This document shows, piece after piece, positions 204 through 6,192 of a stretch of DNA of 6,192 nt. Positions within the stretch are counted from its first letter, which is position 1; each line of letters begins with the position of its first letter. The position numbers and the translations under genes are program-made. The stretch is from a virus (lineage: Duplodnaviria; Heunggongvirae; Uroviricota; Caudoviricetes): IMG/VR virus record IMGVR_UViG_2563366944_000009; one strand, given 5' to 3'. The notes below the pieces were generated by a model. The model saw nothing but the letters and a program-made list of their open reading frames with translations, searched no databases and was not told the origin of the DNA.

Positions 204-234
204 CGCCCGCTTTGCGGGGCGGTTTTAATGCAGT
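196..234 (+). terminator. Candidate intrinsic terminator (GC-rich imperfect hairpin plus TTTT) overlapping cos
   Basis: cccgc-tttg-gcggg stem followed by gcgg and TTTT. Oriented for transcripts entering from the left across cos. Confidence 0.3.
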
Positions 235-304
235 TGTACTGACACGCTCAGACCGCGCCGGGAATGGCACGGTTTACAGAAAATGAGGCAGGAAAACGCA
301 TGCA

Positions 305-337
305 AAGCCATGCACCTTATCGATGCATGGCTTTTTT
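305..337 (+). terminator. Candidate rho-independent terminator
   Basis: 10-bp perfect stem aagccatgca (305-314) / tgcatggctt (324-333) with a 9-nt loop, then a T-run at 332-337. The stem is palindromic so it also folds on the minus strand, where the U-tract is poorer. Confidence 0.5.
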
Positions 338-366
338 CAGTAAAACGGGCGGATTTTCGGGGAGTT

Positions 367-939
367 TTACACAGACTGACGTGATGCCAGTTGCGCACTT
401 TTACGCGAAAAAATCATGTTCTGCGCAGGGGTGAATTTTTCACGGCTGTCATCCACCGAAGCCGCGTCAGGCCTGAATCCGATGGTCGTTAAAATGTCGC
501 TATCCTGTGCGGAATAATTAATTTTTTCCCCCTTCGCAAGCCAGGACAGGAGGGCTTCACGCAGGGCATCTGTGGCACGCTGTATGGCACAGTTTCGGGC
601 AATGGCCGTCAGCTCACTGTAGCCCATCAGCTCCGGTGCCAGTGCGGCCGCCAGTGCTGTGCCGTGCTGCTGCATAAAATCATTCAGCCGGTCGCGGATG
701 CTGATGTGCTGAACGGCTTCATGCGAACGAATATAACGACCGGCAGCCTGATTCACCTGCCATTTTCTGACTTCGATAATATTGCGTAATTCGTCCAGGC
801 GACTGACGTTTCTGCCTTCTCCTGACAGAAGCCGCAGATATTCCTGTTCGGCCGCAGCCAGCTCATTTTTGCGTTGCAGCCATGCTGCTTTGTTATTCTG
901 ACAGGTGTCAAAGGCCTGCTGTAAGGCTGTGCTTTCCAT
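367..939 (-). CDS. psu: Psu-like polarity suppression protein (capsid decoration / Rho antagonist of P4-type satellites), 190 aa
   Basis: Last gene of a minus-strand three-gene operon ending next to cos. The 190-aa length and position match P4 Psu. ATG at 939-937, TAA at 369-367. Confidence 0.75.
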   Translation of the reverse strand: MESTALQQAFDTCQNNKAAWLQRKNELAAAEQEYLRLLSGEGRNVSRLDELRNIIEVRKWQVNQAAGRYIRSHEAVQHISIRDRLNDFMQQHGTALAAALAPELMGYSELTAIARNCAIQRATDALREALLSWLAKGEKINYSAQDSDILTTIGFRPDAASVDDSREKFTPAQNMIFSRKSAQLASRQSV

Positions 940-1012
940 CGTTATCTCTTTCTCATCATGCTGAAGAATAAAAATACGGTGTGCGGCGACGGCCGGGGTT
1001 AACCGGCAGCCC

Positions 1013-1513
1013 TCATTCCAGACGCAGCGAATATGATTGTGTTTTTAACCGTACTGGCGGCAGTTCCTGTTTTTCATGCAGGCTTTCTGCCAGTTCGTCC
1101 GGCGTGACCGGGCGGACAATGAAGCGGTTGATGGTCTGAAGCGTTTTAAACACCAGACCACAGCCCGGCTCCGTGCACACATAAAAACGTTCGGTGACTT
1201 CCTGAGACAGACGCCGCGATGTTCTTGACAGTGCAAGGCCTTTACATCTCCGACAACAATATCCGGTAACAAGCATTCTTTTCGGGCGTTTCATACTGCC
1301 GGAGGCAGAAGTCAGTGAATCGCGGTATCTCTGTTTGCCTGAAATGTATTCCATTCCTGAATCTTTACAGTCAGAGAAAAAGCTTTCACTCGCTTCAAAT
1401 GTCGCAGAGCAATAAATATTCCGGCACTGTGCAATCATTATCTTGGTGCCATCGTCCATGAAATGTGCGCGACGGGTGTGAGCAACATGTCCACACGACG
1501 GGCAGTAAATCAT
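1013..1513 (-). CDS. delta: Delta-like late-gene transcriptional activator, a tandem duplication of the Ogr-type zinc finger, 166 aa
   Basis: Two C-X2-C-X22-C-X4-C motifs in the translation (CPSC...22...CRNIYC and CRRC...22...CTEPGC). Length 166 aa as in P4 Delta. The ATG at 1513-1511 overlaps the sid TGA (ATGA overlap). Confidence 0.85.
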   Translation of the reverse strand: MIYCPSCGHVAHTRRAHFMDDGTKIMIAQCRNIYCSATFEASESFFSDCKDSGMEYISGKQRYRDSLTSASGSMKRPKRMLVTGYCCRRCKGLALSRTSRRLSQEVTERFYVCTEPGCGLVFKTLQTINRFIVRPVTPDELAESLHEKQELPPVRLKTQSYSLRLE

Positions 1514-2244
1514 GACAGCAGTCCTCTGGCCTTAAGCTCTGCTCCCTGCTGGTCTATTTTGTCCTGCCACACCTTGCGCTGTGCCGGTGTGCCTGCCACC
1601 TCATAATCCATGTGCGGGAGTGTTGCCGCTGACAGTCCGGTCAGCCGGAGAACCGGCTCACCGCTGAGGCTGATTTGCATCTGTTTTATTTTCTGTTCCA
1701 GCGATGATTTCACCTGCTGCATGACAGCCTTTTCCGGTGCGATGTAGCCCTGATGGCCGGTGGTGTTGGCGAGCGGATTTTCCTGTACCAGGATGCTCAG
1801 ATGCATTGCCCGGACAAGCGCCTCACAGGTTTCATTCAGGGCGTGTTCCAGCTCATGCTCTGCATACAGACTCAGAAGGTGATGATGTGCCTTCCGGTAG
1901 GCGGTGGCCGTGCTGTCACACGCCCCTTTCAGGCGTTCGCGTTCAAAATTCAGCACCACGGCCAGATTGTCATATTCCTGTACCAGCTCCCGGCGTGCCA
2001 CGCGCTCAATGTGGCGCTGTTTCAGCTCATCGCTCAGGACACCACCGGCTGCACGAAAGGCCGTGCGCCAGTCGTCAGCGTCGTTTCCGTCGGCCTGCGC
2101 CAGCGCATTTTTTTCCTGCTCTGCCCGTTCAATGGCCGTGACGGTCTCATCCATCAGGCGGGCGTTCTCAAGATGGGCGGCTCTGGCCTTTTCCAGTTGT
2201 GCCAGCGCGGGTTGCAGATATTCAGGGATGGTGTTGTCAGACAT
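1510..2244 (-). CDS. sid: Sid-like capsid size-determination (external scaffold) protein, 244 aa from the preferred ATG
   Basis: First gene of the late operon, with a long predicted helical, charged sequence. The ATG at 2244-2242 has GAGG 9 nt upstream and gives 244 aa, the P4 Sid length. The track's GTG at 2262 has no Shine-Dalgarno sequence. Confidence 0.7.
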   Translation of the reverse strand: MSDNTIPEYLQPALAQLEKARAAHLENARLMDETVTAIERAEQEKNALAQADGNDADDWRTAFRAAGGVLSDELKQRHIERVARRELVQEYDNLAVVLNFERERLKGACDSTATAYRKAHHHLLSLYAEHELEHALNETCEALVRAMHLSILVQENPLANTTGHQGYIAPEKAVMQQVKSSLEQKIKQMQISLSGEPVLRLTGLSAATLPHMDYEVAGTPAQRKVWQDKIDQQGAELKARGLLS

Positions 2245-2316
2245 TTTCCGGTTCCTCGTCACTTCAGGTTAAGAAAATTGTGACGTACACCGGACAACAA
2301 CACGACGCATTGCAGA

Positions 2317-2334
2317 TGTGCCAGCCCTGACACA
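2317..2334. promoter_or_regulatory. TGT-N12-ACA dyad, candidate Delta/Ogr activator site of the leftward late promoter (Psid-like)
   Basis: TGTgccagccctgacACA read directly. Its centre lies about 80 bp upstream of the sid start codon, consistent with an activator site near -55 of a late promoter. Confidence 0.5.
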
Positions 2335-2414
2335 GGAGACTCATCCTCAGACCGGCAAGCCAGGAAAAGGTCGCAGGAAAAACCGGCTTACTGTTTGTTT
2401 TTTTTATATTTTAC

Positions 2415-2518
2415 TGTTCACCTCTGTTCACAATAAGAAAAAAGATAAGTAATACAGTAAGTTAAAGGGTGAACAATCGCAGTAATGACTGTTCACCGTC
2501 TGTTCACCACTGTTCACC
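2415..2518. repeat. Iteron array, six copies of TGTTCAC(C/A): candidate ori-type binding sites for the alpha replication protein
   Basis: Copies at 2415-2422, 2425-2432, 2468-2475 (inverted), 2490-2497, 2501-2508 and 2511-2518; the last three are spaced 10-11 bp apart. P4 ori and crr are known to carry TGTTCACC octamers bound by alpha. An AT-rich tract follows at about 2520-2620. Confidence 0.65.
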
Positions 2519-2676
2519 CGTTGATGGGCTTTTTGTGCTGTTTATTACTTTTTATTTTTATTAATTCACTGAAATAAATAAGAAAAAACAATTTGTATTT
2601 CACTATAATTTTTTCCAGCTCCTTCCAGAGCGTTTTAAAGCTATCTGGCGCTGATGTACAAAAAATGCACAGCCAT

Positions 2677-2694
2677 TGTAAGGCTGCCGGAACA
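2677..2694. promoter_or_regulatory. TGT-N12-ACA dyad, candidate Delta/Ogr site of the rightward late promoter (PLL-like) upstream of vis
   Basis: TGTaaggctgccggaACA read directly, centred about 110 bp upstream of the vis ATG. Confidence 0.45.
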
Positions 2695-2796
2695 AATCCC
2701 CCCTGTTGCGTCTGCCGAAAATATTCACAAAATAAAGCGCTACCCGAAGCCGGACGGACTTATCCGGTGCTGTATGGACATTAACGAGGTAGCCCG

Positions 2797-3063
2797 ATGC
2801 AAGCTGTTTTTTCTTCCCCGTCTCCCGCCCCTGTGACGCCACTGATGCCGCTGCCGGACATCACACAGGAGCGTTTTTTACGTCTTCCGGAAGTGATGCA
2901 CCTGTGCGGCCTGTCACGCTCGACCATCTACGAACTCATCCGTAAGGGGGAATTTCCGCCGCAGGTGAGTCTTGGCGGTAAAAATGTGGCCTGGCTGCAC
3001 TCTGAAGTCACCGCATGGATGGCCGGCCGCATTGCCGGACGCAAACGGGGGTACGACGCATGA
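2797..3063 (+). CDS. vis: AlpA/Vis-family small DNA-binding regulator and excision factor, 88 aa
   Basis: The translation contains the AlpA-type helix-turn-helix core ([50 protein letters not shown]). GAGG lies 7 nt before the ATG. The 88-aa length and first position after the divergent late promoter match P4 Vis. Confidence 0.85.
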
Positions 3064-3157
3064 TGATGCCTGTTCTGCAAAAAGTCCCTTTTTCTGGCTT
3101 GCCTTTTTCCGGCATTTGCGGATATAGTTTTTCCGCTGTCGCAAAATCGGCAGCCGG

Positions 3158-3183
3158 GCGTGGAAACCCGAGCAATCTAACGG
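3158..3183 (+). promoter_or_regulatory. Upstream copy of a candidate antisense-RNA target site (GCGTGGAAAC ... ATCTAACGG)
   Basis: Direct repeat of the element at 3410-3450. Both are approximately complementary to 3364-3385. Confidence 0.35.
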
Positions 3184-3191
3184 CGACATAT

Positions 3192-3213
3192 GACGCGCCA
3201 TGCGTCTTTTTTT
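3192..3213 (+). terminator. Weak hairpin plus T7 run, a possible attenuator just after the upstream target site
   Basis: gacgc-gccat-gcgtc followed by TTTTTTT at 3207-3213. The stem is only 5 bp. Confidence 0.25.
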
Positions 3214-3329
3214 GTGTCGCAATCAACGCCACAGAGCGCCAGATTATGGTGTGGTGTGTGGTCAGTCGAGCAGATGGAACTCCGTGCATCCTGCCCGCGT
3301 CCGCTCATTATGCCGCAGAGTCAATGGTA

Positions 3330-3400
3330 GCTCAGGCGGGGCAGCCTCCGGGCTGGCCGGTATCCGTTAGAGCCGGTATTTCCACCCCCGTCTGGGCTAT
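3330..3400 (+). ncRNA. Candidate c4/CI-type antisense immunity RNA; boundaries are approximate
   Basis: The core CCGTTAGA...TTTCCAC (3364-3385) is near-complementary to GTGGAAAC...ATCTAACGG, found both upstream (3158-3183) and overlapping the icd ribosome-binding site (3410-3450). This mirrors the P1 c4 and P4 CI arrangement. No protein-coding signal spans this 400-bp gap. Confidence 0.3.
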
Positions 3401-3409
3401 CGCCATCGA

Positions 3410-3450
3410 GCGTGGAAACTCCGGCGATAGCGTAACCTGCTATCTAACGG
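3410..3450 (+). promoter_or_regulatory. Downstream target-site copy overlapping the Shine-Dalgarno sequence of the Icd-like gene, lying in the loop and 3' arm of a 9-bp hairpin
   Basis: GCGTGGAAAC at 3410-3419 and ATCTAACGG at 3442-3450, running into GGAGG at 3449-3453. A stem gctatcgcc / ggcgatagc flanks the first motif. Confidence 0.4.
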
Positions 3451-3461
3451 AGGCTGCCATC

Positions 3462-3659
3462 ATGGCTACAACCCTTACCCCTTCACACCCTGAATTTGTC
3501 TTTGTGTTTGCGGCTGTCCGTCGCGCAGACCGTCATCCCCGTATCTGCATGCTTCGCACCGTCGCCGGTGATGAACGCAGTGCCCGCCGTTCCCTTGTCC
3601 GTGACTATGTGCTCTCCCTTGCTGCCCGTCTGCCGGTGGTGGAGGTGTCCCGTGCGTAA
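3462..3659 (+). CDS. Icd-like host cell-division inhibitor family protein, 65 aa
   Basis: GGAGG lies 8 nt upstream of the ATG. The translation [65 protein letters not shown] fits my recollection of the short Icd-like proteins found in P4-like prophages. The 214-aa track ORF 3015..3659 is an upstream extension through non-coding DNA. Confidence 0.7.
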
Positions 3660-3939
3660 TAAAAAAGCCCCTCAGACCGTCTCAGCGCGTCATGACGCCC
3701 GTGAACACCTCAGCATTGAGGCTTACCATAAGCTCAACCGCGCCAGCGCCGTATCCCAGTTTGTTGGGGGTGATTTGATTCACCGTGAACTCTCCGGCCT
3801 GCATCAGCTCTACATTCCGCATATTTTCAGCTACCTGAATGAAGATATTGATTTTGTGCTGAATGAGCTGAAAGCCAAAGGCCTGTGCCGCGATTTTCTC
3901 GCCCAGCAGAAAGACCGGGGAGACAAGACGCATGTTTGA
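3652..3939 (+). CDS. Small hypothetical protein, 95 aa, in the position and of about the size of the P4 epsilon anti-repressor; start is uncertain
   Basis: GTG at 3652 with GGAGG 6 nt upstream, overlapping the icd stop. The frame is open back to 3496, but that would overlap icd by 160 nt. No recognisable motif. Confidence 0.5.
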
Positions 3940-4387
3940 TTTTCCCCAGCCCGGTGAGATTTACCGTTCTGCCGGTTTTCCCGATGTGGCCGTGGTCGGC
4001 ATTCTGGAAGACGGTATTCCGTGGGAAATGCCGTACCGCTGCCCGGACATTGTCTGGAACCCGTACCGCCGTAAATTCAGTATCCTTGTGCGTATCCTCG
4101 CTGACGGGCGCACCACAGACATCCCGCTGGGGCGTTTTCTGCGGGAATTTACCTGTGACCGTCCTGACCTGTTTAAACGCAGCCCCGTAAACCGGCATGC
4201 GGTACTGAAAGAAATGGCCGGAGACCCGGAATTACAGAAATGGCGGGAGAAATATCTGGATATTTACCCGCAGGCCCCTGTTCCGGTCAGCCGGGCGGCA
4301 CCGGTGGCGCGGGAATGGCGGGAAATTCCCCGCACGGAGCCTGACCCGGAAATCACCCCGGATAACAGTTACCGCAATTATCTGTAA
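3932..4387 (+). CDS. Hypothetical protein, 151 aa (same length as P4 orf151)
   Basis: Its ATG overlaps the preceding stop (ATGTTTGA), suggesting translational coupling. Codon usage is consistent with its neighbours. Function unknown. Confidence 0.6.
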   Translation: MFDFPQPGEIYRSAGFPDVAVVGILEDGIPWEMPYRCPDIVWNPYRRKFSILVRILADGRTTDIPLGRFLREFTCDRPDLFKRSPVNRHAVLKEMAGDPELQKWREKYLDIYPQAPVPVSRAAPVAREWREIPRTEPDPEITPDNSYRNYL

Positions 4388-4460
4388 TTAAAAAACGACA
4401 CCCGAAAAATTAAATGTGCGTATTCGCGCAGGGATACGCACGTCTTCAGGAGACGCAGAT

Positions 4461-4526
4461 ATGCCTTATCAGTTAATGCAACCGGCACGGAATGCAGTCA
4501 TCTGTCACAGGGAGGAAAACAAATGA
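4461..4526 (+). CDS. Possible 21-codon upstream ORF ([21 protein letters not shown]) coupled to the next gene
   Basis: AGGAG lies 8 nt before the ATG at 4461, and the TGA at 4524-4526 overlaps the ATG at 4523 (ATGA). Too short to assert as a gene. Confidence 0.25.
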
Positions 4527-4843
4527 AAACACCCTTACCGCCCGTCTTACGTGCTGCCCTTTACCGTCGCGCTGTCGCCTGTGCCTGGCTGACCGTGTGC
4601 GAACGTCAGCACCGCTACCCGCATCTCACCCTTGAGTCACTGGAGGCGGCCATCGCCGCTGAGCTGGAAGGCTTTTATCTGCGCCAGCACGGTGAGGAAA
4701 AAGGGCGTCAGATAGCCTGTGCCCTGCTGGAAGATTTAATGGAATCCGGCCCCCTGAAGGCCGCGCCGTCGCTGTCCTTTCTCGGGCTGGTTGTGATGGA
4801 TGAACTCTGTGCCCGTCACATAAAAGCGCCGGTACTGCACTGA
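4523..4843 (+). CDS. Hypothetical protein, 106 aa, immediately upstream of the primase
   Basis: GGGAGG lies 8 nt before the ATG. The stop TGA overlaps the primase ribosome-binding site AAGGAG. Function unknown. Confidence 0.6.
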
Positions 4844-4857
4844 AGGAGAACAACACC

Positions 4858-6192
4858 ATGAAAATGAACGTAACCGCCACCGTCAGCCATGCGCTCGGCC
4901 ACTGGCCGCGTATTCTCCCGGCGCTGGGGATTCAGGTGCTGAAAAACCGTCATCAGCCCTGTCCGGTCTGTGGCGGGAGTGACCGCTTCCGTTTTGATGA
5001 CAGGGAGGGGCGCGGCACCTGGTACTGCAATCAGTGTGGTGCCGGTGACGGCCTGAAACTGGTTGGAAAGGTGTTTGGTGTCTCTCCGTCCGACGCGGCC
5101 GCAAAGGTGGCTGCCGTGACCGGCAGCCTGCCCCCGGCTGACCCGGCAGTGACGGCCGCCGCCGTTGCTGAAACAGACGCTGCCCGGAAGAACGCCGCCG
5201 CACTGGCACAAACCCTGATGGCAAAAACCCGTCCCGGAACCGGTAACGCCTACCTGACCCGCAAGGGCTTTCCCGGCCGGGAATGCCGGATGCTGACCGG
5301 CACACACAGAGCCGGTGGCGTGAGCTGGCGCGCCGGTGACCTTGTGGTGCCACTGTATGACGACAGCGGCGAACTGGTTAACCTTCAGTTAATCAGTGCT
5401 GACGGCCGTAAGCGCACCCTGAAAGGCGGACAGGTCAGGGGCACCTGTCACACCCTTGAAGGACAGAATCAGGCCGGAAAACGTCTGTGGATAGCGGAGG
5501 GATACGCGACCGCACTTACCGTGCATCACCTGACCGGTGAAACGGTGATGGTGGCGCTTTCTTCCGTGAACCTCCTTTCTCTGGCCAGCCTTGCCCGGCA
5601 GAAGCATCCGGCCTGTCAGATTGTCCTTGCCGCAGACCGTGACCTCAGCGGTGACGGCCAGAAAAAAGCCGCCGCAGCCGCAGATGCGTGTGAGGGCGTT
5701 GTTGCCCTGCCGCCGGTCTTCGGTGACTGGAATGATGCCTTCACGCAGTACGGCGGGGAGGCCACCCGTAAGGCCATTTACGATGCCATCCGGCCACCGG
5801 CTGAAAGCCCGTTCGACACCATGAGCGAAGCAGAGTTTTCCGCCATGAGTACCAGCGAAAAGGCCATGCGTATCTATGAGCATTACGGCGAGGCGCTCGC
5901 GGTCGATGCCAACGGCCAGCTTCTGTCCCGCTATGAAAATGGTGTCTGGAAGGTGCTGCCGCCACAGGACTTTGCCCGGGATGTGGCCGGGCTGTTTCAG
6001 CGTCTGCGCGCGCCGTTCTCCTCCGGGAAGGTGGCCTCCGTGGTGGACACCCTGAAACTGATTATTCCGCAGCAGGAAGCCCCCTCCCGCCGCCTGATTG
6101 GCTTTCGTAACGGCGTGCTCGACACGCAGAACGGCACGTTCCATCCGCACAGTCCGTCACACTGGATGCGCACCCTGTGCGATGTGGATTTC
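4858..6192 (+). CDS. alpha: P4 alpha-type primase/helicase replication protein, N-terminal 445 codons (3' end beyond the window)
   Basis: AAGGAG lies 9 nt before the ATG. I translated the frame by hand to the window edge and found no stop. It has an N-terminal zinc ribbon (CPVCGGSDRFRFDDREGRGTWYCNQCG) and a Toprim-type motif (RLWIAEGYATALT ... VLAADRDLSGDG). Absent from the track only because it has no in-window stop. Confidence 0.9.
   Translation, partial: MKMNVTATVSHALGHWPRILPALGIQVLKNRHQPCPVCGGSDRFRFDDREGRGTWYCNQCGAGDGLKLVGKVFGVSPSDAAAKVAAVTGSLPPADPAVTAAAVAETDAARKNAAALAQTLMAKTRPGTGNAYLTRKGFPGRECRMLTGTHRAGGVSWRAGDLVVPLYDDSGELVNLQLISADGRKRTLKGGQVRGTCHTLEGQNQAGKRLWIAEGYATALTVHHLTGETVMVALSSVNLLSLASLARQKHPACQIVLAADRDLSGDGQKKAAAAADACEGVVALPPVFGDWNDAFTQYGGEATRKAIYDAIRPPAESPFDTMSEAEFSAMSTSEKAMRIYEHYGEALAVDANGQLLSRYENGVWKVLPPQDFARDVAGLFQRLRAPFSSGKVASVVDTLKLIIPQQEAPSRRLIGFRNGVLDTQNGTFHPHSPSHWMRTLCDVDF

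Follow-up and report, generated by a model that had tools for sequence, protein, structure and literature searches.

The 398 nt that lie between vis and kil in the 6,192-nt stretch of DNA analyzed here (hereafter, the window) carry two direct repeats and a near reverse complement of them, which raises the question of whether the locus encodes an antisense immunity RNA and, if so, whether that RNA is a known one. The window belongs to a common type of P4-like satellite prophage found in E. coli, and the locus proves to be the immunity region already known from P4, with a specificity allele other than that of P4; it does not represent a new variant of c4. The immunity circuit, the textbook CI RNA circuit of P4, is already known and this copy is ordinary save for its pairing sequences. 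The predicted difference in specificity from P4 is the only new step here, and as a known circuit in a common prophage type, the locus is of small discovery value.

The P4-like element and its immunity region

The window is 97.5% identical to P4 across positions 204-6192 and 95.6% identical across 2653-3700, and its genes follow the P4 order (psu-delta-sid-ori-vis-eta/kil-epsilon-orf151-orf106-alpha; Table 1). Across the flagged 398 nt, the window matches a prophage of E. coli SCU-172 at 100% identity; DNA similar to it occurs in 1253 of 5426 complete E. coli genomes, or about a quarter. The closest known system is phage-plasmid P4 itself (NC_001609/X51522; PLE-seqA-t1-cI-seqC-kil/eta-timm), which agrees with the window in gene order, promoter, terminator and RNA structure, in how the three pairing sites are spaced, and in the lengths of Kil (65 aa) and eta (199 aa). 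The two differ in both pairing modules, for which seqB carries matched changes. Repeated TGTTCACC octamers on both strands at ~2400-2530, between sid and vis, match the repeats that the P4 annotation lists as 'ori type 1 repeats'. Positions 1-203 have no P4 counterpart because the P4 record ends there; in E. coli SCU-172, the psu-side neighbors are a NACHT-domain protein and an integrase-domain protein (cf. L106, 1-6300). We take this position to be the variable defence hotspot of P4-like satellites.

Scanning for promoters identified PLE as the sole sigma-70-like site in 2600-3700, with a -10 element that is the one labeled 'consensus -10' in P4 record X02534. Given PLE at 3099-3128, transcription is predicted to start near 3135, which is also the first position of the isrK model. 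The Rfam scan that had been proposed in the first-pass annotation was run, and on the + strand it matched C4 (RF01695; 76.2 bits, GA 45) over the full-length model (positions 1-87 of 87) and isrK (RF01394; 72.5 bits, GA 50) at 3135-3212 (positions 1-77 of 77). IsrK and C4 have been described as structural homologues of P4 seqA and CI RNA, respectively (PMC3632133; PMC4825925; PMC10111431). The c4-a1b1 model (RF03163), which describes the upstream targets of c4, fell just under its threshold in the window (45.8 vs 46.7 bits at 3122-3174, 0.9 bit short), so membership is not claimed; this model passes in ten related loci, and the same window element is captured by isrK.

An intrinsic terminator, t1, sits directly 3' of seqA. 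The terminator scan placed it at 3192-3206 with a T7 run at 3207-3213, in agreement with the hairpin and T-run that had been noticed after the upstream repeat. Leader hairpin H1 and t1 each show compensatory changes in homologues, and the leader alone folds no better than shuffled sequences (z = -0.75). The CI RNA has a minimum free energy of -48.1 kcal/mol (z = -4.4) and folds into a basal stem and two hairpins, with both recognition elements unpaired. Across 62 homologues, its internal stems are paired in 97.6% of cells, with two-sided changes in 8 pairs. C4-type RNAs of P4 and P1 are processed, stable small RNAs with an RNase P-dependent 5' end.

The region had initially been read as 400 bp with no convincing ORF. 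It is not ORF-free, because the 199-codon eta frame crosses it. Eta has three ATGs (3060/3063/3066) and lies inside a 214-aa ORF at 3015-3659; the vis stop codon (TGA, 3061-3063) overlaps the first of these ATGs (ATGA, 3060-3063). The frame spans PLE, seqA, t1, cI and seqC, is in frame with kil and ends as kil. A PGAP CDS of equal extent is present in the identical locus of E. coli SCU-172, and Pfam Phage_ASH matches eta residues 22-146 (E 1.3e-28). The frame is open in 64/64 distinct homologues, for 297-480 nt upstream of the kil ATG, and the other two frames are shut within 135 nt in the 64 distinct homologous regions. With an open frame lying over the RNA elements, the DNA is therefore of dual use, yielding regulatory RNAs in PLE transcripts and protein in late transcripts. 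Eta, kil and the termination mechanism have been described for P4 (PMC10111431).

Single-base changes in the length of the t1 U-run (T6 in L019, T8 in L093) shift the eta frame, and the open frame upstream of kil is shorter in these loci (297 and 396 nt). Names for the eta frame are inconsistent: 'host cell division inhibitor Icd-like protein' in E. coli, 'transcriptional repressor / cI gene product (137 aa)' in P4 record NC_001609 and 'put. ash gene' in X02534. In the RefSeq/GenBank records compared (E. coli, NC_001609 and X02534), annotation is absent for both the CI RNA and the seqA RNA. The locus is thus of use for annotation, in that the RefSeq labels ('Icd-like protein'/'transcriptional repressor') name CDS only, without the CI and seqA RNAs that bear immunity.

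Table 1. Coordinates of genes, RNA elements and pairing modules in the window
Feature	Position	Strand	Remarks and basis
psu	367-939	-	Pfam/NCBIfam Psu
delta	1013-1513	-	Pfam/NCBIfam Ogr/Delta
sid	1510-2262	-	P4 gene order
vis/alpA-type excisionase-regulator gene, 88 aa	2797-3063	+	Pfam Phage_AlpA, E 7e-21; P4 ORF88 annotation
eta reading frame, 199 aa	3060-3659	+	ORF list; PGAP; Pfam Phage_ASH
PLE promoter (predicted)	3099-3128	+	TTGCCT, 18-nt spacer, TATAGT; consensus promoter scan
Leader RNA with seqA (Rfam isrK)	3135-3213	+	RF01394; terminator scan
Leader hairpin H1	3135-3154	+	
Leader hairpin H2	3155-3170	+	seqA module 1 in loop
seqA module 1, GUGGAAA	3160-3166	+	H2 loop
seqA module 2, UCUAACGG	3176-3183	+	single-stranded spacer before t1
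Intrinsic terminator t1	stem 3192-3197/3201-3206, U7 3207-3213	+	terminator scan
cI gene (CI/C4 antisense RNA)	3320-3407	+	Rfam RF01695
CI basal stem, 17 bp	3325-3341/3386-3402	+	
CI hairpin 1	3342-3355	+	
CI hairpin 2	3356-3377	+	12-nt loop
seqB module 2, CCGUUAGA	3364-3371		loop of CI hairpin 2
seqB module 1, UUUCCAC	3379-3385		single-stranded joint before basal stem closes
9-bp hairpin	3396-3404/3423-3431	+	seqC module 1 in loop; arms 100% complementary
seqC	3412-3453	+	motif counts; covariation with seqB
seqC module 1, GUGGAAA	3412-3418	+	
seqC module 2, UCUAACGG	3443-3450 (plus A3451)	+	overlaps kil Shine-Dalgarno
kil, 65 aa, Icd-like	3462-3659	+	NCBIfam phage_ICD_like, E 1.6e-21; P4 homology
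Controlled operon epsilon-orf151-orf106-alpha	3652-6192	+	
epsilon	3652-3939	+	Pfam Derepression; P4 annotation
orf151	3932-4387	+	Pfam DUF5375; P4 annotation
orf106	4523-4843	+	P4 annotation
alpha primase-helicase	4858 to window end (6192)	+	Pfam Zn_Ribbon_Prim/Toprim/D5_N; P4 annotation

Covariation among the three pairing sites

Two short motifs are each present in exactly three copies in the 6192-nt window, in the order +, -, +, which bears out the two direct repeats and near reverse complement seen at first reading. GTGGAAA lies at 3160-3166 (+), 3379-3385 (-) and 3412-3418 (+), against 0.92 by chance, and TCTAACGG at 3176-3183 (+), 3364-3371 (-) and 3443-3450 (+), against 0.07 by chance; 0/200 shuffles gave three copies of TCTAACGG. 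The inverted copy had been placed exactly, at 3364-3385, and the starts given for the direct copies (3158 and 3410) lie 2 nt before the motif. SeqB is complementary to the upstream seqA and the downstream seqC, with 7 + 8 bp per site. The kil Shine-Dalgarno sequence (SD), GGAGG, is at 3449-3453 and the kil ATG at 3462; TCTAACGG ends at 3450, and the downstream copy does end inside the SD as had been stated, two to three bases into GGAGG.

In order to follow this complementarity across homologues, 23 loci from other genera (Klebsiella, Kluyvera, Pantoea, Erwinia, Mixta, Atlantibacter and others) and 80 from IMG/VR were compared, the 103 loci giving 39 distinct alleles. Four segments were taken by invariant flanking anchors, concatenated and aligned (A3). 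This alignment was anchored on the invariant flanks and not fitted to the pairing, and was used because a plain MAFFT alignment (A2) was one column off at seqC module 2 in some genera. Both C4 and isrK were matched in 20/20 related loci scanned.

The compensatory changes that had been suggested as a check were found in both comparisons, with 11 of the 15 pairs changed on both sides in each. For seqA:seqB, 98.8% of cells are paired, falling to 42-51% when slid, and 141 cells are two-sided as compared to 41.4 +/- 6.9 in shuffles. For seqB:seqC, 99.0% are paired (35-47% when slid) and 144 are two-sided (41.9 +/- 7.1 in shuffles). The observed values were attained in 0/500 shuffles. One-sided changes are G.U on the + strand RNA (e.g. 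GC:28, GU:11), and this strand-specific wobble favors pairing between RNAs over DNA operators. The near-perfect co-variation of three sites across genera makes the locus an example of RNA-RNA covariation. The original proposal of antisense immunity of the P1 c4/P4 CI type is supported by the covariance-model matches, by these compensatory changes and by the 95.6-97.5% identity to P4.

Departures from the pattern occur in L044, L058 and L071. In L044, neither module of seqA has the allele that its seqB and seqC carry, seqA module 2 of L058 is mismatched to its own seqB, and L071 has a 2-nt deletion in seqC and a mismatch in seqB. These are natural recombinants or degenerate copies. Since seqA is mismatched to its own seqB in L044 and L058, seqA pairing is not indispensable. 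P4 genetics showed that one target site is enough to maintain immunity, with which all three loci fit.

Mode of action and alternative explanations

By analogy with P4, it is very likely that immunity in the window works as it does there, with a CI RNA that pairs with seqA and seqC in its own leader and so keeps the replication genes off. The first four steps below were established in P4 and are extended to the window by homology, with RNA ends, processing and termination carried over from P4. Constitutive PLE would start transcripts inside the eta frame (step 1), and the leader would carry seqA followed by the intrinsic terminator t1 (step 2). The cI gene would be contained in read-through transcripts and processed to a stable CI RNA of ~70-80 nt (step 3); in P4, CI processing involves RNase P and PNPase. 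The CI loop (CCGUUAGA) and joint (UUUCCAC) would then pair in trans with the two-part targets of new PLE transcripts (step 4). At seqA, pairing would enhance termination at t1, amounting to autoregulation of CI. At seqC, it would cover the SD of kil, presumably the first gene translated from PLE transcripts, and the untranslated RNA would terminate (at t4 and at Rho-dependent timm inside kil). The kil gene of P4 contains the Rho-dependent terminator timm; t1, t4 and timm were reportedly described in detail by Briani et al. (2000) and by Forti et al. (1999).

Early termination would keep epsilon, orf151 and the alpha primase off in the lysogen; as the untranslated RNA would terminate before epsilon and alpha, the prophage would not replicate. 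Transcripts from an upstream late promoter would be translated through as eta, coupled to vis via the ATGA at 3060-3063, and would read through and escape immunity (step 5). Translation of late transcripts as eta and their read-through past immunity have been described (PMC10111431). Lastly, the concerted change of both modules at three sites would render the element heteroimmune to P4 (step 6).

Three other explanations were weighed against the P4-type circuit. The repeats might serve as operators on the DNA, bound by a repressor protein that the overlapping ORF encodes, which was the original view of the P4 'cI gene product, 137 aa' and survives in the RefSeq name 'transcriptional repressor'. 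A 137-aa cI/ash CDS is annotated over the region in P4 records, and this conserved frame is represented in Pfam by the family Phage_ASH. Such operators fit poorly with the inverted orientation of one copy and its location in the loops of an RNA with strong structure (z = -4.4), with RNA covariance models scoring well above threshold, and with variation that preserves Watson-Crick/G.U complementarity, with strand-specific wobble, instead of sequence identity. In P4, a nonsense mutant of the ORF with RNA pairing intact is reported to be still fully immune. We give this explanation practically no credence and reject it, because the RNA complementarity covaries and the immunity factor of P4 is RNA (PMC4825925; PMC3632133; PMC10111431).

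A mode confined to that of P1/P7 c4, in which icd translation is blocked and ant is lost by coupling, with no termination or replication-gene control, is very improbable. The targets of P1/P7 c4 (a1/b1 and a2/b2, upstream of icd-ant; RF01695 and RF03163, clan CL00128) and those of the window are met by RNAs of the same Rfam family and fold through two-part recognition (a'/b'), the targets comprising an upstream set and a second set that covers the icd ribosome-binding site. The first gene is Icd-like, as Kil is, module 2 overlaps the SD, and 3316-3501 is ~70% identical to the c4-icd region of the P1-like phages D6 and RCS47. The genes downstream are P4 epsilon, orf151, orf106 and alpha, however, so that satellite replication genes take the place of the antirepressor ant as the output operon, and the window has an intrinsic terminator directly after the upstream target, as well as the long overlapping eta frame. 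Termination is moreover the reported output of P4 (PMC4825925; PMC10111431). The P1/P7 and P4 views overlap, because blocked kil translation permits Rho-dependent termination in P4. The remaining alternative draws on the Salmonella Gifsy-1 IsrK/STnc1160-orf45-anrP region (RF01394), the leader of which is a structural homologue (two hairpins, spacer and terminator), likewise with a processed C4-like RNA and a small ORF downstream of it. The short RNA of Gifsy-1 turns on translation of the long isoform and drives an antiterminator. That the t1-ended leader RNA (3135-3213) is a trans-acting sRNA seems unlikely, and we are similarly doubtful that, beyond its role as a CI target, it unlocks the long transcript from an inactive fold and switches on translation of the downstream gene. 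The isrK match (72.5 bits), the conservation of H1 and t1 with compensatory changes and the alternative folds around seqC and the SD are in favor, and IsrK-like elements of P4-like prophages were required in S. Typhi TraDIS, by an unclear mechanism (PMC3632133). On the other side, covariation ties seqA to seqB, as a CI target, in nearly all loci. This mode would in any case add to the P4-type mechanism and not replace it.

The 9-bp hairpin reported at the downstream repeat was recovered (3396-3404/3423-3431), with module 1 of seqC in its loop and module 2 located 3' of it. In 62 sequences, this 3396-3431 hairpin has 98.9% of cells paired and 3 pairs with two-sided changes. Its 5' arm shares bases with the 3' strand of the CI basal stem (3386-3402), and the two structures therefore exclude each other. 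Changes at 3400 and 3402 are compensated in the downstream arm (UA to CG and GC to AU, 17 sequences), and the 5' strand of CI takes them up via G.U/G-C wobble. A third fold, predicted in 37/37 distinct homologous sequences, pairs CUCC(G) at 3419-3423 with (C)GGAG of the kil SD at 3448-3452 and encloses an inner hairpin, GAUAGCG/UGCUAUC (3426-3432/3438-3444). As modeled, the 3419-3452 fold would conceal the SD in cis, together with part of seqC module 2, and it is similar to alternative folds that have been put forward for Gifsy-1 IsrK (PMC4825925). By this analogy, the CI basal stem, the 3396-3431 hairpin and the SD-sequestering 3419-3452 hairpin could together form a cis-acting switch.

A stretch of CI hairpin 1 (GGCAGCCUCCG, 3340-3350) is perfectly complementary over 11 nt to the kil SD and spacer (CGGAGGCUGCC, 3448-3458). 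It was rejected as a functional pairing, as 7-11 of the 11 pairs are kept in relatives with no compensatory change, and in L008 hairpin 1 is changed while the SD side is unchanged.

Two-module alleles and immunity specificity

Over positions 3040-3680, the window differs from P4 at 34 of 641 aligned nt, with no indels (97% identity). Eighteen of the 34 differences fall inside the six module segments, which total 45 nt (P = 5e-14), and all 18 are compensatory. Module 1 is GUGGAAA in the window and GUGAGAA in P4; module 2 is UCUAACGG in the window and UUCACAGG in P4. At six of its 15 module positions, seqB departs from the P4 sequence, and seqA and seqC are altered to match. SeqB and its targets, the identity of which would define the same immunity as P4, are not identical in the window. 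Cognate duplexes have energies of -26.2 (seqA) and -31.6 kcal/mol (seqC) as compared to -12.7 to -21.8 kcal/mol for window/P4 cross pairs, a predicted weakening of ~10-15 kcal/mol that is rough because seqB was treated as unstructured and the internal structure of CI ignored. From the matched changes at all three sites in both modules, heteroimmunity to P4 is predicted, and the element probably falls into an immunity group other than that of P4; as the duplex energies ignore CI structure, the prediction is qualitative.

The principle of an immunity specificity that has been reset is known from phiR73 and P4. Retronphage phiR73, a P4-like element, is reportedly heteroimmune to P4 via changes in seqA, seqB and seqC, as attributed to Sabbattini et al. 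(1996, Virology). The likeness to the window is one of principle, in that a relative of P4 has had its specificity reset by concerted changes at three sites.

The exact 43-nt seqB segment of the window is present in 55 of 5426 complete E. coli genomes. Of the 103 loci, 10 share the two-module allele of the window, an Atlantibacter element with very diverged flanks among them. Among these loci (L001-L105) there are four module-1 alleles (GUGAGAA, GUGGAAA, GUAGGAA and UUUGCAG) and 12 module-2 alleles, in 22 combinations; L004 joins module 1 of the window to module 2 of P4. A joint reading, in which the modules form a recombining combinatorial immunity code and the mutually exclusive folds a possible cis switch in the leader, has in our estimation an even chance of being correct. 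If it is, the code would split P4-like satellites into many heteroimmune groups, with GUGGAAA + UCUAACGG distinct from P4. Immunity groups of P4-like satellites would be typable from two short modules, which bears on co-residence and superinfection. A limited literature search found no systematic survey of the module code, and this code is the only part of the present analysis that might reward further work. Anecdotally, two elements that share one allele occur in one IMG genome (L037 and L045), and two with different alleles in another (L055 and L089).
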